A stretch of 64,000 bases of DNA from a virus, in the IMG/VR virus record IMGVR_UViG_3300033145_000192, positions 113,376-177,375 of that record. One strand, given 5' to 3'. The notes under the pieces are model-generated. The model had not been told where the DNA came from, did no database searches, and was given only the letters and a program-made list of their open reading frames with translations. Positions 3,001 through 49,615 of the stretch are shown here, piece after piece (the first letter of the stretch is position 1; every line of letters begins with the position of its first letter). The position numbers were made by a program, and so were the translations under genes.

Positions 3001-5344
3001 TTGCAGTTAGTTTATCTAGCTGCTCTTGTGTAGCTTCGCCACTGGCCTCAATTACCCTCAATCTTTCGATTTCGGCAGTTGGCTTAATCATTCTTCTGGC
3101 TTGCTTGACGAGTTGTAGTGACTCTCCTATCTTCTTAAGGTCATTTGCCTTCTTTGTAGCTTCATCGAATTGTTCCTCATACTTACCAATGGCGAACCCA
3201 AAGCCTGCTCCAACGGCAGCACCAACAATGGCTCCGATAGGTCCACCAAGCATAGCGCCCATACCAGCGCCTCTGGCGGCTTCTCCTAGGCCCTTACCTA
3301 GTCCCTTACCTGCGGACTTGGATACAGTTTCTTCTAGAGGACCAGAGATAGCAGTAAGCGCCATACCAGCGACCATACTGCCCATACCTGGCATCATCCT
3401 GCCCATACCAGAGCCCATGCCACCAAAGCGGCTAGCAATGCCACGACCAGCGCCAGCAACTCCACGGCCTGCCATTCTGGCACCAAAGCCGCCAACCTGT
3501 CCTGCTCCTCTTAGGAAACCACCAGCCCTGCTGCCCATAACAGCACCACCGGCTCTTCGTCCAACGTCAGCTACTCTTCCTCCGACTGCACCAAAGCCAC
3601 CAGCGATACGGCTACCAAATCCGCCAACGGCACTCATGCCACGACCGAGTGTGCTTCTCTGTCTCTGCATAGCTCCTAGGCCAGTAGCCATTGGGGCTTG
3701 TGCTCCAATTGCTGCGCCACCCATTGTTCTGGCAGATTGTGCTACCTTGTTGCTAAGGTTTTGAATACCTACGCCAAGCCTACTCTTGTTAATCTTGTCT
3801 GCTGTGGAACTAACACTGGCCCCAAAGGACTTAAGTGGCTGCTTGACATTCTTATTGAAATCACCCGCTCTACTCTTGTCAAAGTCCGCAGAACGAGCCA
3901 GTGCTCTCTTCGTGATATCAGCCTGTGCTCCAGTGCTGGCACGAGTTGTTAGCCTTTCTCCACTGCGCATAATGGCAGAGGTTGGGTCACCAGTTACGGT
4001 TTGGCCTCTGCGTCTCATGGCAGAAAGCTTGCTTGCAGCCCTCTGTGTTGGAGATACAGTGTGTCCAGCCTGTGACCTTAGTGCGACTCTCATAGGGTCG
4101 TTAGCTGGCATTGATGATAGTTGTCTCATACCAGGAGTTGTCATTGCTGGCATTGGCATTGGCATGCCTGGCATTGGTGCCATCATACCTGGTAGTGGTG
4201 TAAGTCCACCTCTTACCTTCTTCAATGCCTCTGTGGATTGCCACTGCCTCATTCCTGCTAGAGCTGGATATTGCATTGGCATTGTTCTGTCTGCACCAGC
4301 GCCGATACTGCGAAGACCTCCTCTTACTCCTTGAAGTGCGGAAACCTGTCCAGCAATTGGCGCACCCTGTCCGACTCTCGTTGGTCTTCCGGCAAACATG
4401 TTTCCACGAACATTCGGTCCACCGAACCACGCCTTTGTTGCTTTGGATGCAGTAGATGCTGGGGCATTAGGATGCATAGGCTGTGAGTATGGCAACATAC
4501 TCTGTCTTCTTTGTTGCCTCTGCATGCCCAGGACTTCTCTATCCTGACGCCTATAGTTTAGGTTTCCAGGTGCGCTTCCTAGTGGACGACCAGCCATTTG
4601 CCTTGTTGGCGTTCCTGCTGGCTGTAGTCTACTACTTGCCTTACCCGTGAAGAATACTCTTGTTCCTAGTGACGCAGAGCTAGCTGGAGCCTTTGGGTCT
4701 AGGTGTGAAGGTAGACGTGGGCCCTGCATTGCCCCAGTTGTTGGGAATGTTCTAGTAGCTCTTGTTGTTCCGGACCTTAGCATTGCGGAGCTTACCGCTG
4801 GGGAAAGACCTCTTCCTCCCATATTTCTGGCAACTGCCGCTTCTCTTGCAAAGTCTCTTCCAGTTCCTAGGCCAGAGAGTTGGAGCTTCCTTTGTCCACC
4901 CCACGATGCACCCTCGATTTGTCCACCACTTCTAGTAGGACCTATTCTGCGTCTACCACCTAGAGGAAGTGTTGGTAGAGGGAGTTGTCGTTGTCCAGCA
5001 GCGGCAAGGAAATCCTTTGAATAACCAGAACTGCCAGGACTAAGTAGACGACCACCCACTCCGGGATGTTGGCCACCACCACCAAGCCATCCTCTTGTAA
5101 AGCCGGGACTAGGTAGCTGACCACCTTGGGCACTTGGAATTGGACCCAACATGCCACCGGCAGGACCACGGGTTCCGCCTGCTCCTGGGAGTCGTGCAGT
5201 TCCAGCAGTAAATCTTCTGAAGTCACGACCGGCAATTAGTGACCCGCCGCCACCACCGATGAAAGGTCCAGCGCCAAATCCTGCTCTACCGGCTCCAGCA
5301 GCGCCACCGCCGCCTCCACCTCTTCCACCGCCTCCACCGCGATA
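1..5344 (-). CDS. Tape measure protein, C-terminal portion (partial, runs off the left edge; joined to 5236-6993 by a -1 frame change)
   Basis: No stop found in this minus frame in the stretches I read or inferred from mirror ORFs (1-120, 2772-5344; 121-2771 not read codon by codon, but the frame is the same on both sides). Missing from the ORF track, probably because its stop lies outside the window. Gly/Ala-rich then coiled-coil-like sequence. Confidence 0.8.
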
Positions 5345-7866: not shown

Positions 7867-8166
7867 TTATTCTGGTGGCGGGATAATCTTGAAATCAATG
7901 TGATAGTTCAAGAACTCAATGTTGTATTGATTATCCAACTCAGATTCCATGTTCCGAATTTGGTCGTTACCAATATTCAATATCTTAGACCTCAGCTTCC
8001 TGAAGGTCTCCTCTTCCAGTGCTCCGTCTGCCCTCTCTTTATCAAGGGCATCTAGAACTCCTACATAAATACGTTTCATCTTGTGACGGACGCTAGCCTT
8101 CAACTTCTTCTTGGACTTGTCAGACCAATTGTCTGTTTTTTTCTCGATGTGTTTACCAAGCCTCAT
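7867..8166 (-). CDS. Hypothetical protein (tail module)
   Basis: 99-aa ORF tightly packed in the operon. Confidence 0.6.
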   Translation of the reverse strand: MRLGKHIEKKTDNWSDKSKKKLKASVRHKMKRIYVGVLDALDKERADGALEEETFRKLRSKILNIGNDQIRNMESELDNQYNIEFLNYHIDFKIIPPPE

Positions 8167-22933: not shown

Positions 22934-25156
22934 TTATACACCTATCCGATAACTCGCAATAGCCGTAGCCATAGCCAGCTTCTTGTCCTTCAATGTTGGT
23001 CTAGATTTCTCAGCAATGACTTCCGCATAGCGACTAAAGATAATAGGATGATATCCCCTAGTCGATTCATTAGCAAGAACTTCTAGAACTCTCTCAGTAG
23101 TTATCTCGTCTTCTAGGTATGAAGCAACGCCGAATGCAATGCGCTCGATACCTGTTCTATCGGTCTTTGTCAAAGACTTCTTGTATTTCTTCCCCGTGGT
23201 CTTCAATATCATCTTGGTGACGATATCGTAAACCTCTTCTACTCTGTCCAGTTCATTCGCCTTGGTTGTCTCCCAATCAAGCAGCCATCCCATGCCCTTC
23301 GGCTTGGTTTCTCTTGGCTTTTGTTTGATGTCGGTAGTTCCACCTGGTCTTCCAACTGGTGGCCTATTTCTATTCTGAGGCTTGCCTGGCTTATTCAGCG
23401 TAGGCATGCCTTCCTGCTCTTCCTCGTATTGTTCTGATAGAGGGTCAGTGAATGGGCCGTGCTTGATAAGCAATTCAGACTTCTCCCTAATTGCCTTCTC
23501 ATCACGCATACGCTCAAGCTCAATCTCAAAGTCCTCACCAAATGCCTCAAGGACTGCCTCAATGGAGATGATGTTTCTGTCTAGCAGACCCATAATGAGT
23601 TGCTTCTCAGCCTTCTCGTCACGTAGCGACATTCTTCCGAACTTAACCTTCGGAACGTCCCTATGGCCCATCGTATCGGCAATCATCTTCAACTGGCTGT
23701 TAATCCAGCGTGTGACGGTTTGGCGACCTTCCTCAAGACGCTCAAGCAAAGTTCGCACACCAAGGAAGCCTGTGCTAAAGCTAGCTCCAGTAGTTCCTCC
23801 TAGGAGAGTATCTGGGACGCCGAGGCCACGAAGAATGTCTCTATCAACTGCCTCATACTTGGCAACATTCAGGATTCTATCTACTGGTGGGTAGCTACTC
23901 TCAATAGAGATGGCATCATTCCATACCATGTTCATTGCGGCACTTGGAGTTCTCAAGAACTCAGCGAATGCTCTAAAATGCTCCTCTGGTGGAATAAAAC
24001 CGTTCTTGAAGTCGCCAATCTTGAAAATAGTGACTGCGTTAATTACGCTATCACATACGCTCATATCCATCTGGCGCAGTCTGTTCTTGTAGTAGATATC
24101 AGACATTACTGGCCATAGAAGTGGGTCAGCCCAATCCTCGTGGTCGTCCTTCATATAGTGGAGTGTCCACAGCTTTGCTGGGTCAACATCTACTATTAGT
24201 GGGTTCTTCCCCTTCTTTGATAGCTTCTTAAACTCGGGTGGTAGATTGATTTCGGTTTTGTCTAGGAAGTCGATTTCGTGCGTTGAGTTATACTGCCCAG
24301 TGTCGATATCGTTTGCTGTCAATGGGTCTAGGATAAAGACCCACTTTGACTCTCCGAAATACTTGGTGCCACGAAGGTCCATCTGGAATGGGTTGAGCAT
24401 AGTATAGCGCCATGGAATTTGCTTATCGCCAGGCTTCTTTCCAGATTGGTCGTCAACGTGCTGATTCTTGTCGTCTTCCGCCGGGTCATTTACATCACCA
24501 CGGACTTCAACAAATCCCTTCAGTGATTTTGTTCCCTTTGCTCTCTTCATCTTATTGTAGGCTGATTCGTTGATTGTGCCATGTGTTGTGTAGATGAATA
24601 CGTTGGCATACTTGTAGTAGTATCGAAGGATATCCTTTACTCTACCTGCAAGGTCTACGTGCTCGGCCCATCTTTTGTAGAACTTCTCAACGGCCTTGCT
24701 TGGGTGCTTGATGGTTAGTCCTTCTGAAGCGAAGTTAGCCATCAGGTCAATTACGTTCTTAGCTACGCCAAATCCCTTATATGCTTCAACACATAGACCC
24801 ATCTTGTAGTGGGCCATTCTGGCTCTAGAACTGAACGCGCTCATGCTCCCTTGGATTCGGCTATTACTGCCAGACAATCCACTGAACTGACTACCTCCAC
24901 CAAACATGCCGTTAAAGTTCTGTGGCATCAACCAAGAAAGTGGCCAATTTTGCAGACCATCCATTCCGAAGTTCTGTCCGGTGTCTCCACCTATGTTGAC
25001 GCCACGCCTTTGAATGTTTGCAGCATCGGCCCTAAACGCATCTACAGTTTCTCTATTGGCCTTAATGGCACCAGAAAGCGAACCCTCCAACTGTTTCAAA
25101 ACAGATGGGCTCAAGCCTATAGTATTGATGCCTAGTTCTACTCTGTTATCTGACAC
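22934..25156 (-). CDS. Portal protein
   Basis: 740 aa, directly after TerL; AKNVIDLMANFASEGL.I.HP, ILRGLGVP..LLGG patterns. Confidence 0.8.
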   Translation of the reverse strand: MSDNRVELGINTIGLSPSVLKQLEGSLSGAIKANRETVDAFRADAANIQRRGVNIGGDTGQNFGMDGLQNWPLSWLMPQNFNGMFGGGSQFSGLSGSNSRIQGSMSAFSSRARMAHYKMGLCVEAYKGFGVAKNVIDLMANFASEGLTIKHPSKAVEKFYKRWAEHVDLAGRVKDILRYYYKYANVFIYTTHGTINESAYNKMKRAKGTKSLKGFVEVRGDVNDPAEDDKNQHVDDQSGKKPGDKQIPWRYTMLNPFQMDLRGTKYFGESKWVFILDPLTANDIDTGQYNSTHEIDFLDKTEINLPPEFKKLSKKGKNPLIVDVDPAKLWTLHYMKDDHEDWADPLLWPVMSDIYYKNRLRQMDMSVCDSVINAVTIFKIGDFKNGFIPPEEHFRAFAEFLRTPSAAMNMVWNDAISIESSYPPVDRILNVAKYEAVDRDILRGLGVPDTLLGGTTGASFSTGFLGVRTLLERLEEGRQTVTRWINSQLKMIADTMGHRDVPKVKFGRMSLRDEKAEKQLIMGLLDRNIISIEAVLEAFGEDFEIELERMRDEKAIREKSELLIKHGPFTDPLSEQYEEEQEGMPTLNKPGKPQNRNRPPVGRPGGTTDIKQKPRETKPKGMGWLLDWETTKANELDRVEEVYDIVTKMILKTTGKKYKKSLTKTDRTGIERIAFGVASYLEDEITTERVLEVLANESTRGYHPIIFSRYAEVIAEKSRPTLKDKKLAMATAIASYRIGV
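22935..22942 (-). promoter_or_regulatory. Putative late promoter GGTGTATA (overlaps the portal stop)
   Basis: Exact motif just upstream of RBS AGGAGAGG. Confidence 0.6.
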
Positions 25157-33347: not shown

Positions 33348-34026
33348 CTAACGTAAGTCTTTGATATCACCTCTTAGAAACTTCTTGAGAGATGACTTCT
33401 TATTTGTTCTATGGTCTACAACCAGGTCTTTGCGCTCGCAATAGGTTCTAACTTTGTCCCCTCTTGCCCCTCTACCGACCTGGCTTTTCCTCTTGGCGTT
33501 CTTTTTATCTTTGTTGCGTCCCCGTTGGGCACTAAATAACTTAGCCCGCATGGCGTTCAGGGCCAACGCCTTATTGCGTCCCTGCCTGCGGCCATACTGG
33601 GCTATAACTACCATTCCTGTTGGGATGTGGGTTAGTCGAACTGCACTGTCAGTTTTATTTTTATGCTGTCCACCAGGTCCGCTACCTCTAAAGAAAGTAA
33701 ATCTGAGGTCTTGTGGTCTAAGTGCCACTTCAGTCTTTTGCTGGTGTTGTAAGACAGCAACGGTAATAGTGCTTGTATGAACTCTTCCCCTGCGCTCTGT
33801 AGGCGGGACTCTTTGGTATCTGTGGACCCCTGCCTCGTGACTGAAAACTTCATTTGCTCTCCTTCCTCCTACTTCTAGGACGACATATGATGCGGCGCGG
33901 TCGAGCAATTCAATGCTAAAGATGCTCCTTAGCGGCGACCTTCCTGAATACGTTCTCGAACTTGACAACCAAGTCCTTGGCGTCTGCACCACCAGCGGCG
34001 GCGCGAATCTCAATCGTTACGTTCAT
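33348..34026 (-). CDS. Peptide chain release factor 1-like protein lacking domain 1, expressed through a +1 frameshift at 33916-33921
   Basis: ORF1 MNVTIEIRAAAGGADAK...KEHL-TAG; +1 frame continues SIELLDR..., HRYQRVPPTERRGRVHTST (PxT motif), GPGGQHKNKTDSAVR (GGQ). Confidence 0.88.
33915..33929 (-). promoter_or_regulatory. prfB-style programmed +1 frameshift cassette AGGAG-CAT-CTT-TAG-C
   Basis: Internal SD, 3-nt spacer, CUU slip codon, in-frame stop, then C. Confidence 0.85.
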
Positions 34027-35918: not shown

Positions 35919-36221
35919 TTAGGTGAAACACCTATTATTTGGGGCCTACACTATATCAGGGCCCCGCCGTAAGTCCTTTGTTTTCGACCACCGCTCTAAG
36001 TTCAATAATACCAGGGGGTTACGTAAAGCCTTTGTTTCCGACCCTTTCTTTTCATTTCACCGCCCCCATGAAATGAAATGCTTATCTCCTTTGTTTGCGA
36101 CCGCCCGATTTCTGGCACCCCCAACCCCTTGCCCTGTAAGGGTTTACGGCGGTGACCGTTTTCCGGCACCCCCAACCGCCCGATTTCCGTCGCCCCGCAC
36201 CGAAAACAAAGGAGTTATGAC

Positions 36222-36240
36222 TGGCACGGGACGTGCTATA
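36222..36240 (+). promoter_or_regulatory. Sigma54-type promoter (-24/-12)
   Basis: TGGCACGGGACGTGCTATA, exact GG-N10-GC spacing. Confidence 0.7.
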
Positions 36241-36499
36241 GGTAGGGTGGCGGCGCGGGGTCGGGTGCGACCCAAAAGCGTCCCGCTCTTTGACAATTCG
36301 GCTCATTTGCGTGTCACGGTGGGGGGCCTTGCGCCTCATTTGTGACGCACGGACCACGTCGAGAGACGTATCTGGAACCGAGACCCGCCGGAGGCTGAGA
36401 CGCTTCTGACACCTACGGGGGCGGCAGGAGGGACGCAAATGAGACGGCCTTGAAACGCAACGGGTCGCCCTGAAGGCAGGGAGTCGCAAATGCGACGAA

Positions 36500-36516
36500 T
36501 CCGGTTCGAATCCGGA
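36500..36516 (+). other. T-loop hairpin TCCGG-TTCGAAT-CCGGA
   Basis: tRNA T-loop consensus closing a 5-bp stem, ahead of the first early gene. Confidence 0.55.
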
Positions 36517-36583
36517 ACGACCCATGACACGTTTCACCATGCGTCTCACAGAAAGGGACGCAAATGACACGAAGGAGGAGGAG

Positions 36584-36814
36584 ATGAAACGAATGCGGCC
36601 TGTCACTGAGACGATGGCACGCATCTGCGACGAATGTGACGGGTTGGGTTTCGTTCCGCGACACTCAACTGGAACGAAAGTGACACTGGTCGAGGCGCAT
36701 ACGGCACAGAAATGCGACGAATGCGACGGCTTCGGGCTGGTGGCACGCAAGCGAGACGAATCCACCCTGACTGAGACGATTCTGCGACTCAAAACCCTCT
36801 ACGAAACGAACTGA
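36584..36814 (+). CDS. Small Zn-finger protein (two CxxCxGxG repeats)
   Basis: CDECDGLG and CDECDGFG; GGAGGAGGAG RBS. Confidence 0.7.
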   Translation: MKRMRPVTETMARICDECDGLGFVPRHSTGTKVTLVEAHTAQKCDECDGFGLVARKRDESTLTETILRLKTLYETN

Positions 36815-36823
36815 GAGACGGAA

Positions 36824-37333
36824 ATGACACGCTTCTGGACCATTGCCCACGACGATAAGGTTTCAAATGCGTCCCACGAACACCTAACCCTTGCGTTTCA
36901 CGACGATGGGACGATTGCGGTTCGAACCAAGACCGTCTCAGAAGGGGCTCATATGCGTGACACTTACGAGTCATGCGGCTCCTACGGTCGGTGGGATACG
37001 GGTCACCGTTGGGTCGAATTCGACTCAAGCTGCACCGCATTTGACATGGCTTCGGTTGCCATGCAACGCGAGTGGAACGTAACGGTTCTCAACTGCAACG
37101 CAAGTGACTCGGATTGGGGTCACATCAGTTTCATCGAGTGCGACGGAAACGTCACCGACCCGGATACGTTGCGCGGCATGGGACGCAACAAAGACGCGGA
37201 CGCCGATGAGACGAGTGCGACACGCAAGCGGAACGGAAACAGCCTCATGCGGTTCGGCGGGTGGAACGCAACGCGGGTCGTAAATGACAAGGCTCTGGCA
37301 CGAGCCAAGGCTGCCGACGCGGCACGCAACTGA
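36824..37333 (+). CDS. Hypothetical early protein
   Basis: 169-aa ORF. Confidence 0.65.
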   Translation: MTRFWTIAHDDKVSNASHEHLTLAFHDDGTIAVRTKTVSEGAHMRDTYESCGSYGRWDTGHRWVEFDSSCTAFDMASVAMQREWNVTVLNCNASDSDWGHISFIECDGNVTDPDTLRGMGRNKDADADETSATRKRNGNSLMRFGGWNATRVVNDKALARAKAADAARN

Positions 37334-37375
37334 CACGAACGGTGCTCGGGGCGGGTTCGACTCCCGCCCGTGTCA
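37331..37375 (+). other. T-loop hairpin inside a TGACACG/CGTGTCA stem (tRNA top-half mimic)
   Basis: GGGCGGG-TTCGACT-CCCGCCC at 37349-37369. Confidence 0.7.
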
Positions 37376-37432
37376 TTTCGGTTTCACCATACGTGCCACC
37401 CAGAGGCACGCAAACAGAACGGAAGTTTCAAA

Positions 37433-37651
37433 ATGAAGAACATTCACGACCTGCGAGACGCATTCGACACGATTCAGGCTGCGGCACGAGACGGAAAACG
37501 AGCCTGCAACGGATTTGAGACGCTAGAGGCGTCCTGCGTGTTGGACCACGATATGCTGGCCAGCATACTCCTGAGCGTTGAGGAGCAGTTGCGTCTCATT
37601 GCGGACCACGCGAACCGGAGCCTGGGACAAACCGCTATCCGAATCGACTGA
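37433..37651 (+). CDS. Hypothetical early protein
   Basis: 72 aa from MKNIHDL. Confidence 0.6.
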   Translation: MKNIHDLRDAFDTIQAAARDGKRACNGFETLEASCVLDHDMLASILLSVEEQLRLIADHANRSLGQTAIRID

Positions 37652-37677
37652 CACGCATCTGAGACGGACGGCTTCTA

Positions 37678-37706
37678 GGGTCGTAGGGTTCGATTCCTTA
37701 CGACTC
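37678..37706 (+). other. T-loop hairpin
   Basis: GGGTCGTAGGG-TTCGATT-CCTTACGACTC. Confidence 0.7.
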
Positions 37707-37761
37707 ACTTGCGGTTCACAATCCGTGAAACGCACAACTGCCTGGTGGCAAAGGATTTAGC

Positions 37762-38355
37762 ATGAACGTCAGAAAGAACGCGCTTCGTCTCATGGTCGTC
37801 CGCAACGCAACTGAGACGGAGTTCGCTGCCCAGTTCGCCTACCGCACCGCACCGCTCGGCTCGACGGGACGCAAATGGGACGCAATGATGGACGACGGCT
37901 GGTGGAGGGGCGACGGTAACGAGTGGGTCAAGGTCTACAAGGGTATCAGTGAAACGCATTTGAGCCCGGACGACTACAACTACCTCTCGTGGGACGAAAT
38001 TGACTCGATTCTGCGACGAGAGACCATTCGGTGCGTAAGCGTGTCAACGACTCGTCTGCGGCGTGTTCGGTCTCACTTGCGTATCACCGAGGCGTCGTCC
38101 TTCGGTGGCAACGTGGCCCGCAGGGTTCGGTGGCTCAAGGACATGCGGGACGAAGCGGAGCGAAACGCATTTGAGGCGAACGTCCTGCTCTGCTCCGATA
38201 TGGACCAGTTGGCCGTAACTCCCGGCGACGAGTGGGATTACACCTACAACCCCGAGACCTACGGTTGGGACCACAGCGAGCCGTCCGGGTCATTTGCGTT
38301 CCAGAACCGTGCCAGCCACGAGTTGACCTTCGACGACATGGACGACTGCTTCTAG
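37762..38355 (+). CDS. Hypothetical early protein
   Basis: 197-aa ORF, AAGGA RBS. Confidence 0.65.
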   Translation: MNVRKNALRLMVVRNATETEFAAQFAYRTAPLGSTGRKWDAMMDDGWWRGDGNEWVKVYKGISETHLSPDDYNYLSWDEIDSILRRETIRCVSVSTTRLRRVRSHLRITEASSFGGNVARRVRWLKDMRDEAERNAFEANVLLCSDMDQLAVTPGDEWDYTYNPETYGWDHSEPSGSFAFQNRASHELTFDDMDDCF

Positions 38356-38374
38356 CAGACACGCATTGGTGACG

Positions 38375-38403
38375 GAGGCGGTAGGTTCGATTCCTGCCGT
38401 CTC
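38375..38403 (+). other. T-loop hairpin
   Basis: GAGGCGGTAGG-TTCGATT-CCTGCCGTCTC. Confidence 0.7.
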
Positions 38404-38458
38404 ATTTGCGTCTCAATTATGGGACGCTTAACGGCCTGGTGGCCAAGGTGACACGCAT

Positions 38459-38698
38459 ATGAGTATCTTCCTGAACGGCGAGGCGTATGAGCAGGACATG
38501 GCCGAGACTGTCGTTGAAACGCAAGTGGAACGATACACCGGCAACTGGGAAATGAAGGACGGCAGCCAGCCCGTTGGCATGGTGACCGGAATGAGACGGA
38601 AGGACAGTTTGTCCCGTTTGCGTCTCACCGACTCCCAGGCCAAGTTCTTCCTCAGCGACACTCACTGGGATATCTACTGGGAGGTGTTCACCGACTGA
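38459..38698 (+). CDS. Hypothetical early protein
   Basis: 79-aa ORF. Confidence 0.6.
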   Translation: MSIFLNGEAYEQDMAETVVETQVERYTGNWEMKDGSQPVGMVTGMRRKDSLSRLRLTDSQAKFFLSDTHWDIYWEVFTD

Positions 38699-38736
38699 TA
38701 CGCATTTGAAACGAACCAACGTCGGTTTGTTTCAGA

Positions 38737-38765
38737 GGGATAGACGGTTCGATTCCGTTTGTCTC
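38737..38765 (+). other. T-loop hairpin
   Basis: GGGATAGACGG-TTCGATT-CCGTTTGTCTC. Confidence 0.7.
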
Positions 38766-38809
38766 TTTTGCGTCTCACAATGAGGCGCAGCAATGCCTGG
38801 AGGCACGCA

Positions 38810-39040
38810 ATGAACACGTATCTGCTCACGGTTTGGGACGGAAGCAACGCAAATGGGCTCGGCCAGACCTACAATCTGGGGCGCAGCAACGGGCTCTACA
38901 CCCCGATTCAGCAGGCTGGAACGATTCTGGCACAGTGGCACGCAAATGGCACGAACGAGTGGACGTGCAACGATAACGGGGCGTGGGAGAACCTGGAGAC
39001 GGGCCACAAGGCGCAACTGAGCCGAGTGCTGGGCCGCTAA
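38810..39040 (+). CDS. Hypothetical early protein
   Basis: 76 aa from MNTYLL, GGAGG RBS. Confidence 0.6.
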   Translation: MNTYLLTVWDGSNANGLGQTYNLGRSNGLYTPIQQAGTILAQWHANGTNEWTCNDNGAWENLETGHKAQLSRVLGR

Positions 39041-39089
39041 ACGCAAGTGAGACGAATCAACTTCTAGCCTGAAACGCAAAGGAAACGAA

Positions 39090-39314
39090 ATGCTGAAAAG
39101 TGAACTGATAGAGGAAAACAAGCGGCTGCACGATACCGTCGATTACCTTCGGTCGCAGTTGCGTCTCATACCGCACAGTCGTTTCGAGAAGTATCGGCAC
39201 GCAAAGGACACGAACGAGACTCTGGCCTACCGCAAGTGCGCCCAAGAGGTAGACTCGCGCTGCCTCGCCGCACTGAGCCACGCAACTGACATACAAGACG
39301 GTTGCACCGACTAG
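39090..39314 (+). CDS. Hypothetical early protein
   Basis: 74 aa, AAGGA RBS. Confidence 0.6.
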   Translation: MLKSELIEENKRLHDTVDYLRSQLRLIPHSRFEKYRHAKDTNETLAYRKCAQEVDSRCLAALSHATDIQDGCTD

Positions 39315-39562
39315 GCGACACGCATTTGAGACGGACCTGAGCATGTCGTTAAACTGCTCGGTTTCTTTTGCGTCTCACAACTGGCCAGGCCAGGGGGCAG
39401 TCTGTCTATAATGAATCAGCGAACGACACGCAAATGCAACGTATCTTCTCTAGCAGTTACGAATGACACGCAAATGCTACGAATGCTTTCGTTTCACCAT
39501 ACGTCTCACGAGAATCCGCCCGAGGTGTTCACGCATAAGGAGTAAATGACACGCAAATGAGA

Positions 39563-39724
39563 CCCACTACATATGGTATGCTATTTGTTATGACACGCAA
39601 ATGAAACGCTGTTGTTCCCTACGGGGAGATTGGCATGATTCCAACACAACTAAAGGAGTTACAAATGAGACGCAAATGCAACGAGCACCTGCGCCATTCT
39701 AATACACCCCCCATATGTAGTGGG
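39563..39724. repeat. Perfect 14-bp inverted repeat CCCACTACATATGG / CCATATGTAGTGGG
   Basis: Arms at 39563-39576 and 39711-39724. Confidence 0.85.
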
Positions 39725-40004
39725 TTGGCACGCAAGAGAGACGCAACGAGCCTATGAAACGCATTTGTGACATAAAATCAATTCGTTTCACTATACGTCT
39801 CACGGAAAGCCGCCCGAGGTGTCTGGGGAGAGGGAGGAAACGCAAATGAGACGAGAGCCGCAAATGAGACAAAAGCCTCCGCTGCGCTGCGTCATGCTTC
39901 TTTTCATTTCACCTTGCAACGCATTTGTGGAGCAAGGCTACCTAAAGGCTTTACAGCGTTTCACTTACGTCTCAGATGTTGCACCGTATGTGACACGAAG
40001 ACTT

Positions 40005-40020
40005 TGGCACGGGATTTGCT
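40005..40020 (+). promoter_or_regulatory. Sigma54-type promoter
   Basis: TTGGCACGGGATTTGCT, essentially the consensus. Confidence 0.75.
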
Positions 40021-40114
40021 TAGGGGGCGGCTGGCGGCTGGCCGACGTAACTCTATACGCCACGTCTAAGCCATTGTGCCCACTAGCTTTATGAACTCAG
40101 TGGACCTTGGGGTC

Positions 40115-40130
40115 TGGCATGGCATTCGCT
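40115..40130 (+). promoter_or_regulatory. Sigma54-type promoter
   Basis: TGGCATGGCATTCGCT, GG-N10-GC. Confidence 0.55.
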
Positions 40131-40261
40131 TAGTGAGACGTATCTGACCCATGACACGCATAACTCCTTTGTTTTGGCAATGAGACGTATTGTGGTGTCC
40201 AGCCGGACACTGTAGCCAAATGGACACCACTGGAATCATTAGAGTTACGTCAAATACCCTC

Positions 40262-40280
40262 TGGCATGGGACGTGCTATA
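40262..40280 (+). promoter_or_regulatory. Sigma54-type promoter
   Basis: TGGCATGGGACGTGCTATA, near-identical to the 36222 site. Confidence 0.7.
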
Positions 40281-40511
40281 GCTTCCCTGTCGGCCAACGG
40301 CAACACGGGAGGAAAGGTAAGGTATCACGGGGGTTACGGGTGTCATTGTGATACCCTCCCATGATACTAACCCTAGACTCGCCAGCATATTCGGGAGGTA
40401 AGCCTAACCCCTATTCGCAGGAATCGTGTCAAAACGGTCCCGAGCGAGCCATAAATGAGACGGATTGTCGCCAAAAGGCTACAGCGTCCACGCAACGGGG
40501 GGAGTTAGGTT

Positions 40512-40528
40512 TGGCATTCGGCGTGCTA
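40512..40528 (+). promoter_or_regulatory. Sigma54-type promoter directly upstream of the large ncRNA
   Basis: TGGCATTCGGCGTGCTA, preceded by GGAGTTA as in the other copies. Confidence 0.65.
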
Positions 40529-40537
40529 CTGTGTTCC

Positions 40538-41425
40538 GTAACGCTAACTTGAGAGGGTAAAGCGAGCCACTATACCGCCCCATAAACGGGATTCCGACTG
40601 ATAGCGGGATAATGATTCTATCAGGGTTTTATACTAACCGGCGTTAAAAGCGTTGGACGTATTGTGGACCTTAGCACGATACGTAGGGTTCCCCTGGCGG
40701 GGAATACAAAGGTTGTATGGTCTACTGTGCAAGGTAGCTTAAGCCATACAACCGGGGGCGGTAAGCCGAGATACTGGCTTGCTCAATGTCGTAAGACTGC
40801 CCTGTAAAAGCGACGGCGCTTGCCCAAAGTATTTAGGCTTTAACCTATAAGGTTGCGGTAGGGGTTGGAATCAGGATACCCTGAGCGAGTAGACTAGGTT
40901 AGAGTTTCTGCCATGCGGGCGACAAGCCGATTGTTAAGCGGCTCGCGTGGATAGGTTGGCAAACCTATAACCCTGTTTTGGTGGGGTATATGGTGAGCTA
41001 TGGCCGACTGTTGGGAGCGTGGCGCAAGCTACGCCAGTCGGTTATCTCGCTAGTCTGTGCAAGCGGACCTTGTATATCCTTTTAATGAACGGGGCCTAGC
41101 CCGAAACGTCCGTTTCCGTTAGCTAGACACGGTTTCGCCTCTATTCGCCTATATCCGTGAGTCGTTTAGACTCGTGGGCTACCTAACTTGGTAGGTTACA
41201 GGATACCGCAAGGTCTCCCCAATACCGTAAACCCAGGGGCCTACAGGATAGCGGGCGATTGGCGATAACACGGTCCATAATGCGTTGATACCAAGGGACT
41301 CCAAACGGAGTTATTAAATCCCGTGAACGGTTTATGCCGGAAACAATGGCTTATTAGGGCAGGGTTCAAGGGGTCATATCCCCTGGCAGGGTTTTTGCCG
41401 CCACCATTCGGGAGGCGGCTTTTTT
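40538..41425 (+). ncRNA. Large (~880 nt) highly structured non-coding RNA, class unknown
   Basis: No credible ORF; many hairpins with GNRA loops; long-range helices 40657-40670/41272-41285 and 40581-40593/41317-41336; promoter before, terminator after. Confidence 0.8.
41397..41425 (+). terminator. Intrinsic terminator
   Basis: GCCGCC...GGCGGC-TTTTTT. Confidence 0.75.
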
Positions 41426-41439
41426 CGTGGGAGTGTATC

Positions 41440-41659: not shown

Positions 41660-41730
41660 ATGCCACTGGCCTAAAAGTAAGGCGCTCGCCGCAAAGGCGG
41701 GAGGTATGGGTGCAAATCCCATGTGGCGTT
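41660..41730 (+). tRNA. tRNA-Cys-like element with a defective anticodon loop (CGCAAAG, no U33)
   Basis: Acceptor ATGCCAC/GTGGCGT, D arm GCCT/AGGC, stem CTCGC/GCGGG, T arm ATGGG-TGCAAAT-CCCAT, discriminator T. Confidence 0.8.
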
Positions 41731-42085: not shown

Positions 42086-42170
42086 CCGCGATAACTGAGC
42101 GGCTGGGCTACGCTTTACGAGGGGAAGGGAATGATAGCTCCCTACTCGGGTTCGACTCCCGAGATTGCGG
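42086..42170 (+). ncRNA. Degenerate tRNA-like element
   Basis: CCGCGAT/ATTGCGG closing stem, two internal hairpins, CTCGGG-TTCGACT-CCCGAG arm. Confidence 0.6.
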
Positions 42171-43076: not shown

Positions 43077-43727
43077 ATGGCAAAGGCCAAGTTCGATTTC
43101 ATTGGTATGGTCATGGACGCTCCCGAGGACCAGCGGGCTGGTATGTTGGAGCAAATGGCCAACATGACCAGCACCCCGGTTTCCGAGCTTTCGGAGCAGT
43201 TGGACAGCCGACTGAACAAGCGGAAGGAAACTGAGGAGCAGAAGGCTCGACGTTTGGAGCGCGAGGAGCGTAACAAGCGGGTCGAGACTGTTACCGCTAC
43301 GGTGGAGTCGCTGCGCGACGATATCGACGGTCTGCGGGTGGCGTTCGAGGAGGTTTCGGAACTGGAGGGGCAGATTGTCCTGAGCGGTTTCGACAGCGAT
43401 ACCCTCGTGTTCACGGTCGGCGGGCTCAAGGTGAGCAAGCGTGGTGGCGGAACTGGCGGCGGAAAGCCTGCCGCGAATCAGCCGCGCCCCTACGTTTCGG
43501 ACGGCGAGCGTATCTTGGGCCAGTTGCCCAAGTGGGCTGAGGAAAACGTCGGCCTGGCTGAGTTGGAGGAGCTTTCCGAGGAGCACGAGATTGACCTTTC
43601 GTATTCCGCAAAGACGGGCAAGCTCGGTTCCAAGAATCTCGCCAAGTTGCTGCTCAAGGCAGAGCTTATCGAGAAGAGCGAGGTAACTGCTGAGGAGCAG
43701 GCCGCGTTCGAGGCGACTCGGGACTAA
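43077..43727 (+). CDS. Hypothetical coiled-coil protein
   Basis: From MAKAKFDF, AGGAG RBS. Confidence 0.7.
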   Translation: MAKAKFDFIGMVMDAPEDQRAGMLEQMANMTSTPVSELSEQLDSRLNKRKETEEQKARRLEREERNKRVETVTATVESLRDDIDGLRVAFEEVSELEGQIVLSGFDSDTLVFTVGGLKVSKRGGGTGGGKPAANQPRPYVSDGERILGQLPKWAEENVGLAELEELSEEHEIDLSYSAKTGKLGSKNLAKLLLKAELIEKSEVTAEEQAAFEATRD

Positions 43728-43769: not shown

Positions 43770-43817
43770 GCCTTATCTCCGACTGGCGGGGTTTACGGGT
43801 CCGACTCCCGATAAGGC
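43770..43817 (+). ncRNA. Minimal tRNA mimic (acceptor stem + one hairpin + T arm)
   Basis: GCCTTAT/ATAAGGC, CTCCG/CGGGG, CGGG-TCCGACT-CCCG. Confidence 0.6.
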
Positions 43818-43819
43818 TG

Positions 43820-43905
43820 TCGTTGCTGGTCTAGTAGAATGACGCCCGCTATCAAAGAGCATAGCTCTTATGCGGGAGATATGGGTTCATGTCCCATGCA
43901 ACGCG
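43820..43905 (+). tRNA. tRNA-like element with a 22-nt hairpin replacing the anticodon loop
   Basis: CGTTGC/GCAACG, D arm GTC/GAC, stem CCCGC/GCGGG, T arm ATGGG-TTCATGT-CCCAT. Confidence 0.75.
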
Positions 43906-43987
43906 CTACACAAGCCAGTAGGTAGAACCCCGCGTGGGGTATCACGCCGTATGGCTGTTTCTTTCACTCCAGCAAATAGGAGGGCAA

Positions 43988-44322: not shown

Positions 44323-44464
44323 CCCTTCGTAATGTAGCTAGGCAGTTTGTGCGGCGCACCATGTCGGAATTGGATTGGGTGCGAGCGTATTGCGCGTGAA
44401 TGGGGCGCATACAATACAAACTCTCTAACGGTCCCAAGCCCGTGTAAATACAGAGGGAGGAAGG
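44323..44464 (+). ncRNA. Twister self-cleaving ribozyme (type P1, enlarged P3)
   Basis: P1 CCTTC/GAAGG, T^AA, P2 TGTA/TACA, GC, P4 ACGG-TCCCAAGC-CCGT, GA-GGGA pseudoknot partner; predicted cut between 44329 and 44330. Confidence 0.82.
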
Positions 44465-47011: not shown

Positions 47012-47141
47012 GGGGTGTTAGTCCAACGGGAGGACGCCGTCTGTAATGCTGCGCAGCGGGCATATTACTGCTAGGAGTAGCTATCCTGGCCGAGTATGTC
47101 GTCACTAGACGGAAACATAGGTTCGACTCCTATACACTCCA
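47012..47141 (+). tRNA. tRNA-Glu-like shell with a 66-nt structured domain replacing the anticodon loop
   Basis: GGGGTGT/ACACTCC, GTCC/GGAC, CCGTC/GACGG, AAAC, ATAGG-TTCGACT-CCTAT. Confidence 0.85.
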
Positions 47142-48154: not shown

Positions 48155-49615
48155 ATGGGCGGCTTTGACCGAAACATCACGATTGGCGCTAGGTGGTTTG
48201 ATACCATCAAGAAGGATTATTCCGACTGGCGCTTTGCTTGGGCGCGTGAGGCTGGACAGAATAGCCTTGACGCGGGAGCCCAGAATATCGTCATTACCGT
48301 GGAGTATGACGAGGATACCGACGAGACCACCGTTAGCTGGAACGACGACGGTTGCGGTATGGACGAGGATACGCTTGAGTCCAAGTTCATGGCTATTGGC
48401 GGAAGCCAAAAGGCCGAGGGCAATACCGGCGGCTTTGGCGTAGCCAAGCTAATCCTGGCGTTTGCTCAGGAGAATTACGCGATTCGCACCCGTGATATCC
48501 ACGTCCGGGGCGAAGGCTCGCAATACTCGGTCGAAACCGGACTGCTCTACAAGCGGGGGCTACGGCTTACCGTTACCATGTCTGGCGACGAGACATACTG
48601 CGTGCGTGAGCGTATCAGGCGGTGGGTTCGGTTCACTACCACTCGCTGCGCTATCATGCTAGACGGCGAAAACCTCACGACGTTGCGTATGCACCGACCA
48701 AAGGTCCAGAACGAGTGGTGCAAGGTTTACACCCACAACATTGGCGACGATTTCGCGCACCAAATCCGGGTCCGAATCAATCGCCAGTATATGTTCGACA
48801 TTTACTCCAGTGTCCCGAGGCACATTACGGTGGACCTTATCGGGGACTCCACGGAGTATCTCACGTCGAACCGGGACGGAATGAACTGGCAATGGCGCAG
48901 TAAGCTCCAGAAGCTCTGCGAGGAGCTATTCGCTGACCCCAGGCAAATCAAAGAAACCCCCGACCACGTAAAGATTTATCGTGGAACTATGGGGCGTATC
49001 TCGTGGCAAACTGAGGACGAGAAGCCTCGCAAGGTTTCGCTGAATACCAAGCCCGAGAGGGTTGCGGCTGTTCCCACCACGTATGCGGGTTCCCCCAACG
49101 CAAGGGAGTGTAACCCCGTCCCGCTGCCGCCGCACAAGCGGAGTTTCAGAGAGATTCAGCACCTTATCGACGGGTTCGATGTGGTCGTTATGAATCAGAC
49201 GAGTAAGGAGTTGCCCGAAAAGTGGGAGCCGGGAACTTTGAGCAAAACGAACTACAAGCTCCTCAACCGTTGGATTCGAGTTATCCAGACGGTCGGAGAG
49301 ATACTCGGGCGAACCGAGGACGTGACTATCGGCTGGGTTTTCTCGTTCGATGCGCGTGCTATGCACCGTTACAACGACGAACACGGCCATATGGTGCTCC
49401 TCAACCCCGTGGACGTAAAGGAAACTCGCATGACGAATCACTGGAGGGCGGATATTTCCTCCTTCTATGAGATGGTCGTCTGCGCTATCCACGAAATCAC
49501 GCATATCGACAACTCGGGACATACCGAGGCGTTTGCTCGGGACATTACCTACTCAATGGGCAAGGTTATGGCTCGCCAGTCGCTTCTGGAAAAGGTCCGA
49601 AAGGAGACGAGGTAA
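48155..49615 (+). CDS. GHKL (HATPase_c) ATPase with a C-terminal HEXXH motif
   Basis: REAGQNSLDAGA, NDDGCGM, GGFGVAK Bergerat motifs; AIHEITH. Confidence 0.8.
   Translation: MGGFDRNITIGARWFDTIKKDYSDWRFAWAREAGQNSLDAGAQNIVITVEYDEDTDETTVSWNDDGCGMDEDTLESKFMAIGGSQKAEGNTGGFGVAKLILAFAQENYAIRTRDIHVRGEGSQYSVETGLLYKRGLRLTVTMSGDETYCVRERIRRWVRFTTTRCAIMLDGENLTTLRMHRPKVQNEWCKVYTHNIGDDFAHQIRVRINRQYMFDIYSSVPRHITVDLIGDSTEYLTSNRDGMNWQWRSKLQKLCEELFADPRQIKETPDHVKIYRGTMGRISWQTEDEKPRKVSLNTKPERVAAVPTTYAGSPNARECNPVPLPPHKRSFREIQHLIDGFDVVVMNQTSKELPEKWEPGTLSKTNYKLLNRWIRVIQTVGEILGRTEDVTIGWVFSFDARAMHRYNDEHGHMVLLNPVDVKETRMTNHWRADISSFYEMVVCAIHEITHIDNSGHTEAFARDITYSMGKVMARQSLLEKVRKETR

Follow-up and report, generated by a model that had tools for sequence, protein, structure and literature searches.

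What does a phage encode in almost 0.9 kb of DNA that holds no protein-coding gene? The stretch in question lies at positions 40538–41428 of the window, that is, the whole 64 kb of DNA analysed here, which is the final part of a complete virus record of 177,375 bp. The genome of this uncultured phage has its capsid, portal and terminase genes on the minus strand and encodes a B12-dependent ribonucleotide reductase; its sole named relative, Bacillus phage G, is distant (25% in the capsid protein). The phage is rich in tRNAs, with about 43 of them in a separate island, and has a true tmRNA (genome positions 23699–24068). On the circular map, the tRNA island is about 70 kb away from the stretch, which sits among small genes. 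Alternative genetic codes were rejected for this genome, which uses the standard code (code 11); a class I release factor (PF00472, PF03462) is encoded at 33348–34013 on the minus strand.

Near 35 kb of the window, both the direction of the genes and the GC skew switch. Rightward of this point lie small genes without a known function, a field of 17-bp repeats and six exact sigma54-type promoter motifs, all on the plus strand, and by inference this is the early region. The repeats (about 45 copies within 36000–40500, on both strands, inside and between the small genes) are candidates for enhancers, for sites of protein loading or for iterons of an origin. The same field occurs in L196 and a variant form in L198, two relatives considered below, and 15-bp tandem-repeat arrays are present in a related phage, G007 (L082:4047–4320 and L083:9490–9680).

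A structured RNA gene and its transcription signals

The original prediction was that this stretch is a giant non-coding RNA with its own promoter and terminator, and the existence of a structured RNA gene at 40538–41428, with a predicted transcript, is confirmed. No credible reading frame is found under codes 11, 4 or 15, the longest stop-free run over all frames being 63 codons. Directly 5′ of the RNA, at 40512–40527 on the plus strand, lies the predicted sigma54-type promoter motif (GG-N10-GC), from which transcription would start at about 40538. The three additional upstream motifs are present as well, at 40005, 40115 (with one mismatch) and 40262 (40005–40277, plus strand), are retained in the sister copy L181, and could yield longer transcripts. 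The window contains seven exact motifs of this type, all on the plus strand and six of them within 36.2–47.3 kb. The position of the GG-N10-GC motif is retained in L181, L184 and L196, with a sigma70-like promoter instead in L198. Genes for a sigma54 activator, a TROVE protein and a CCA-adding enzyme (PF01743) were not found in the phage genome, so that transcription from such a promoter would need the sigma54 activator of the host. Behind the 40262 promoter, a conserved hairpin (40310–40385, plus strand) has a 21-nt core that is nearly invariant even in L184; with its few compensatory changes, it could be either a small RNA or a DNA site that is palindromic.

At the other end, inspection of the sequence and the fold reveals a hairpin followed by a T-run at 41397–41425 (plus strand), resembling an intrinsic terminator, in agreement with the original prediction although a simple terminator scanner did not list it. 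This hairpin is identical in L181 and a terminator is probably present also in L198; no U-run follows it in L196, and none was seen in L184.

Relatives of the RNA

BLAST searches with the RNA yielded no match among annotated phages and plasmids, nor among 28 phage records related by the capsid protein (58–95%), of which the two closest stop short of the RNA locus. After these DNA searches gave none, homologues were reached via neighbouring proteins: homologues of the product of 43077–43727 led to L181/L182 and L184, and those of the HATPase encoded at 48155 to L196 and L198. Five RNAs could thus be compared, those of the window, the sister L181 and the diverged L184, L196 and L198, which represent four independent lineages. 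In the three diverged phages, counterparts of 710–830 nt occupy a gene-free gap behind a promoter and upstream of the same HATPase gene. Although both halves of the RNA vary, the total length stays within 710–855 nt. The L184 RNA is matched by nhmmer (E 1e-10) and its 5′ half is homologous to that of the window RNA (local z 10). The L196 and L198 RNAs show weak global likeness to the window RNA (z 2.2 and 5.0), with none detectable in the 5′ half (z ~1); they sit in the corresponding gene-free gap, which likewise follows a repeat field of this kind, and their 3′ parts fold well (z −5.5 and −6.1).

The family seems narrow. When 26 of the 28 capsid-related records, many of them incomplete, were searched with a 3′-end model, there was a single weak match, in a coding region; a descriptor built from the shared features of the 3′ domain retrieved nothing further in 2.4 Mb of DNA; pattern scans of viral and metagenome contigs for the PAGEV-like loop described below and other motifs gave chance matches in genes; and a literature search found no description of such an RNA. 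Several other long gene-free stretches in related phages are candidate large RNAs (L086:13514–14730, L106:5897–7853, L110:6524–8345 and L090:9338–9946), one of which follows a sigma54 motif and has a T-loop hairpin at its end. In G008, a structured gene-free 0.9 kb (L088:2230–3130, z −3.7) ends in a small tRNA-like element; it has three short words in common with the window RNA but no collinear likeness (z ~0).

Structure under selection

The folding energy of the RNA is −359 kcal/mol, with a z-score against shuffled sequences of −7.1 on the plus strand versus −4.0 on the minus strand; a further folding z of −7.6 counts as support beside the former value. The RNA is 93% identical to its sister copy in L181, compared with 84–85% for the flanks. 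In a consensus fold computed from these two sequences alone, so that the lack of broken pairs is partly by construction, the 62 substitutions divide into 31 that are unpaired, 13 that keep a pair and 18 that make up nine compensatory pairs; when the same substitutions were placed randomly, an equally biased control, the mean was 1.1 compensatory pairs, with a maximum of 3 over 30 trials, and the consensus energy was 53 kcal/mol poorer. Loops that change in L181 remain GNRA loops, and one hairpin is missing altogether. The nine compensatory pairs against about one in the control, the loops that keep their class and the clean deletion of a hairpin indicate that the structure is under selection.

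The local helices that were named in the original prediction are present in the minimum free energy (MFE) fold and several of them covary. The proposed pairing of the two ends of the RNA did not withstand comparison. The 14-bp match of 40657–70 with 41272–85 exists in the window but drops to 11 of 14 pairs in L181, where a local 10-bp hairpin (40657–66/40675–84, plus strand, spanning 40657–40684) keeps 10 of 10, with four compensatory and three one-sided changes; hence the long-range match is a chance complement, and the local hairpin replaces it. The pairings of 40581–93 with 41317–36 are present in the sequence; they are invariant in L181 and hence uninformative there, and two distant relatives have the corresponding 3′ strand paired in a local, covarying helix. 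The 14-bp end-to-end helix is not conserved. A 19-nt complement (40882–900/44042–060) was also treated as a chance occurrence, with a genome-wide E of 1.7 and a partner that lies inside a small called gene in L181.

The 5′ half of the RNA (40538–40968, plus strand) is a structured domain of about 430 nt with many hairpins (folding z −5.4) and compensatory changes relative to L181. It includes a long arm (40836–40906, plus strand) with a 12-nt loop (hairpin 40861–40882), in which the stems covary and the loop is invariant in L181. The domain ends in a boundary hairpin (40951–40968, plus strand) with a URGCAA loop, which recurs on differing stems in all five RNAs and stops 1 nt before the next structural element.

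A 3′ domain that can close like a tRNA

In all five RNAs, the 3′ part can close in the manner of a tRNA, which is the main feature of the RNA and one that the original prediction lacked. In the window, this domain comprises 423 nt (40970–41392, plus strand; z −4.8) and consists of an acceptor-like stem, two giant arms and a T-loop hairpin. The four-way layout recurs when each of the five domains (423, 404, 245, 311 and 280 nt) is folded alone, and only 1 of 150 shuffled domains closes as an acceptor junction, the domain limits having been set after the acceptor pairing was seen. The 7-nt 5′ strand of the acceptor-like stem (40970–40976, plus strand), before which RNase P is predicted to cut, begins 1 nt after the URGCAA hairpin, and its partner (41386–41392) is the 7 nt that follow the T stem, in all five RNAs. 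All seven pairs form in every one of the five, with pairs 1, 3 and 5 fixed and two-sided changes at 2, 4 and 6. In the full-length folds, the probability of the acceptor helix is 0, 0.51, 0, 0 and 0.34 across the five RNAs, and its formation costs 0–11 kcal/mol over the MFE; the competitor differs from phage to phage, and in the window RNA it is an identical strand at 41359–41365 that competes for 40970–76 and wins. The acceptor closure is nevertheless credited, because it is the only perfect pairing common to all five RNAs at a fixed position.

The 3′ strand (41386–41396, plus strand) continues into a discriminator-like U at 41393 and a U-run, with no encoded CCA. The T-loop-like hairpin (41369–41384, plus strand), which by comparison of the five has one extra loop base in the window phage, has a G-rich stem and invariant equivalents of U55–C56 and A58. 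Comparison of the five RNAs located no conserved GG of a D-loop, so that a true elbow is no more than conjectural.

Arm 1 stands in the D-arm position (40978–41085, plus strand; 108 nt) and in the fold of the domain bears two GCAA tetraloops; its L181 counterpart shows one-sided changes, replacement of GCAA by GAAA and one cleanly deleted hairpin. Arm 2 takes the position of the anticodon arm (41092–41367, plus strand; 276 nt) and contains compensatory pairs at 41162/41170 and 41202/41217. Across the five RNAs, the two arms span 59–108 and 155–276 nt, respectively, the shortest arm 2 (155 nt) being that of L184. The best-conserved element of this cargo, here denoted motif B (41290–41331, plus strand), is present in all five about 80 nt 5′ of the T-loop and consists of a helix, an AA/RYGAA internal loop, a GG/CC helix and a side hairpin with an AAAY loop; the helices covary, and the side hairpin is absent in L196. 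Such conservation of the cargo suggests a binding partner.

Smaller tRNA-like elements or T-loop hairpins are found between the early genes at 36463–36526, 37331–37375, 37675–37708, 38369–38405, 38731–38766, 41660–41730, 42086–42170, 43770–43818, 43820–43906 and 47012–47140. In several of these, the D or anticodon arms are missing or enlarged (the element at 47012 has about 65 extra bases), and the Leu and Asp calls made by ARAGORN in this region are not normal tRNAs. These altered elements suggest that the phage uses a tRNA-like device repeatedly.

Comparison with known RNA families

Searches of Rfam at gathering and at loose thresholds identified no known family, with a weak match to PAGEV as the only signal. 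Covariation, synteny and the failed Rfam searches support a large, structured, stand-alone RNA of no catalogued class, with a predicted transcript. The original prediction had allowed for either a divergent member of the GOLLD or ROOL families or a new class; the RNA is indeed structured and uncatalogued, whereas membership in GOLLD or ROOL finds no backing in the models. The model of the conserved 3′ domain of GOLLD (RF02032) has no match in the genome at E ≤ 1, and no ROOL candidate (RF03087) was found in the genome by a search that lacked a positive-control signal. The resemblance to GOLLD and ROOL is that of ornate RNAs of 0.6–0.8 kb, without a known function, in phages with tRNA islands (PMC12286853); GOLLD, moreover, has a conserved 3′ part and a variable 5′ part (PMC12286853). 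The window RNA differs from both in its sigma54-type promoter, its tRNA-like closure and its location, some 70 kb away from the tRNA island; no conserved set of pseudoknots was found in its family.

With tmRNA, the 3′ domain shares an acceptor stem and a T arm that enclose several hundred bases; the comparison of five sequences indicates that these are formed by the two ends, for the 3′ domain only. In contrast to tmRNA, a long arm stands in the D-loop position. The G3–U70 identity pair is absent, pair 3 being C–G in all five RNAs, and neither a tag frame shared among the five nor a match to RF00023 was found. Searches of the domain for a D arm, an anticodon arm with a 7-nt loop, a tRNA call by RF00005 or ARAGORN and a self-splicing intron core were all negative. 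For the Y RNA YrlA, there is neither an Rfam match nor a Ro60/TROVE gene nearby.

RNAC and RNAD of phage T4 (species 1 and 2 RNAs) have tRNA-like ends that host enzymes process; they are late RNAs of about 120–140 nt, compared with a domain of 245–423 nt in a unit of 850 nt, and the window domain has no Rfam match. They too are phage RNAs without a known function, and stable ones (PMC9697503). Another analogy in design is the engineered tRNA scaffold, in which acceptor and T arms around a large insert are read by tRNA-processing enzymes; in Escherichia coli, such scaffolds, which combine acceptor, T and D arms with an anticodon arm that holds the insert, undergo processing and are stabilised (PMC3753655). 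Unlike these constructs, the phage RNA is natural, carries inserts in two positions and has no normal D arm.

The match to PAGEV (RF03037; 17.3 bits, where the cut-off is 61) amounts to the 12-nt hairpin loop of the 5′ domain, with a single-base difference. This loop is invariant in L181 and absent from L184, L196 and L198, and six true PAGEV plasmid loci show no likeness to the window RNA. In small plasmids of Pseudomonas and Vibrio (L013–L018), PAGEV-like matches lie in long gene-free regions and the conserved sequence extends past the Rfam model; PAGEV may accordingly belong to a replication RNA of greater length. Ribozyme-like elements were also noted: a twister type-P1-like element at 44394–44461 of the window (plus strand; 33 bits, E 2e-4), conserved in L181, and, in L196, a stronger twister-like element (7979–8044) and a hammerhead-like element (4409–4468).

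A possible natural tRNA scaffold and its alternatives

RNase P and the enzymes of 3′ processing read an acceptor stem stacked on a T arm. The 3′ domain therewith suggests, in the model put forward here, a processed transcript rather than a single 880-nt molecule, and the tRNA-shaped end probably serves excision and stabilisation by the tRNA-processing enzymes of the host. The host sigma54 RNA polymerase would produce a transcript of 855–890 nt, the last 423 nt of which, judging from the five phages, would fold into a 7-bp acceptor-like stem stacked on the T-loop hairpin, with the 108-nt and 276-nt arms where the D and anticodon arms belong. By analogy with established tRNA processing, host RNase P would cut before 40970, and 3′ nucleases would trim at the U-run, to 41393, as expected for the CCA-less tRNAs of this phage. 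Neither the real tRNAs nor the tmRNA of the phage encode CCA and the genome has no PF01743 gene, so the phage already depends on the host for end processing. The predicted outcome is a pair of stable, structured RNAs with lengths of about 430 and 420 nt, and the tRNA-like frame would shield the RNA from decay. Motif B would then bind a protein of the host or of the phage at an early stage of infection, and our best guess for the cargo, which is the weakest step, is that it acts as a decoy or sponge towards a factor that senses tRNA or RNA; no role in decoding or protein tagging is envisaged. We assign roughly even chances to this reading, in which a free-standing gene of the phage encodes a non-coding RNA with the build of a natural tRNA scaffold, the processing and the decoy being its predictions. 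Its most specific form, a new class of large RNA in which a two-piece unit of 0.85 kb yields an RNase P-excised 'giant tRNA' of 245–423 nt with two hypertrophied arms, acting early to divert, as a decoy, a tRNA-sensing defence or a translation factor of the host, is tentative and, taken whole, unlikely.

The RNA might instead remain a single uncut molecule of 855–890 nt that forms an RNA-only oligomer or cage in the manner of GOLLD and ROOL, with the tRNA-like closure only defining or protecting the 3′ end. Its size, its phage setting and its many GNRA and T-loop-like loops resemble those RNAs (PMC12286853), and the overall length is steady (710–855 nt) despite the varying halves; yet the GOLLD and ROOL models have no match, and a cage requires conserved contacts, whereas the 5′ half is dissimilar between distant phages and the arms vary two-fold. 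We regard this arrangement as rather improbable. We judge it distinctly less probable that the locus is a structured leader or antiterminator of an early transcript rather than a free RNA, the T-loop hairpin being a mere processing mark. The four tandem promoter motifs, the T-loop hairpins after several small early genes and the want of a clear terminator in L184 and L196 would fit such a leader, but the window phage and L181, and probably L198, do have a terminator, the downstream gene differs between phages, and 850 nt of covarying structure far exceeds what known antiterminator RNAs need.

Two further explanations have very little probability. A replication primer at a phage origin, akin to PAGEV or to RNA II of ColE1, is brought to mind by the weak PAGEV match (17.3 bits against 61), by the occurrence of PAGEV in predicted plasmid origins (PMC5737381) and by the position of the locus next to the 17-bp repeat field, near the strand and GC-skew switch; against it stand the dissimilarity to the six real PAGEV plasmid loci, the lack of the PAGEV-like loop in three of the four relatives, and a terminator and closed 3′ end that are ill-suited to a primer. 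Just as improbable is an RNA that acts on ribosomes, either a divergent tmRNA-like molecule or a tRNA with an intron, even though in size and end-to-end topology the 3′ domain matches tmRNA: the G3–U70 pair and a shared tag frame are missing, the tmRNA and intron models are unmatched, the phage has a separate true tmRNA, and the arm 2 of L184, at 155 nt, is below the size of group I introns.

Implications

Bacteria and phages have few large ornate RNAs, and what these do is still an open question; the family described here adds an uncatalogued one. The scaffold reading makes a sharp prediction, namely that RNase P cuts before 40970 and that the RNA ends at 41393, possibly with addition of CCA, and the 245- and 280-nt versions of the domain are compact targets for cryo-EM. 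If this reading is true, phages would employ the tRNA frame as a natural cassette for the expression and stabilisation of functional RNAs of 400 nt.
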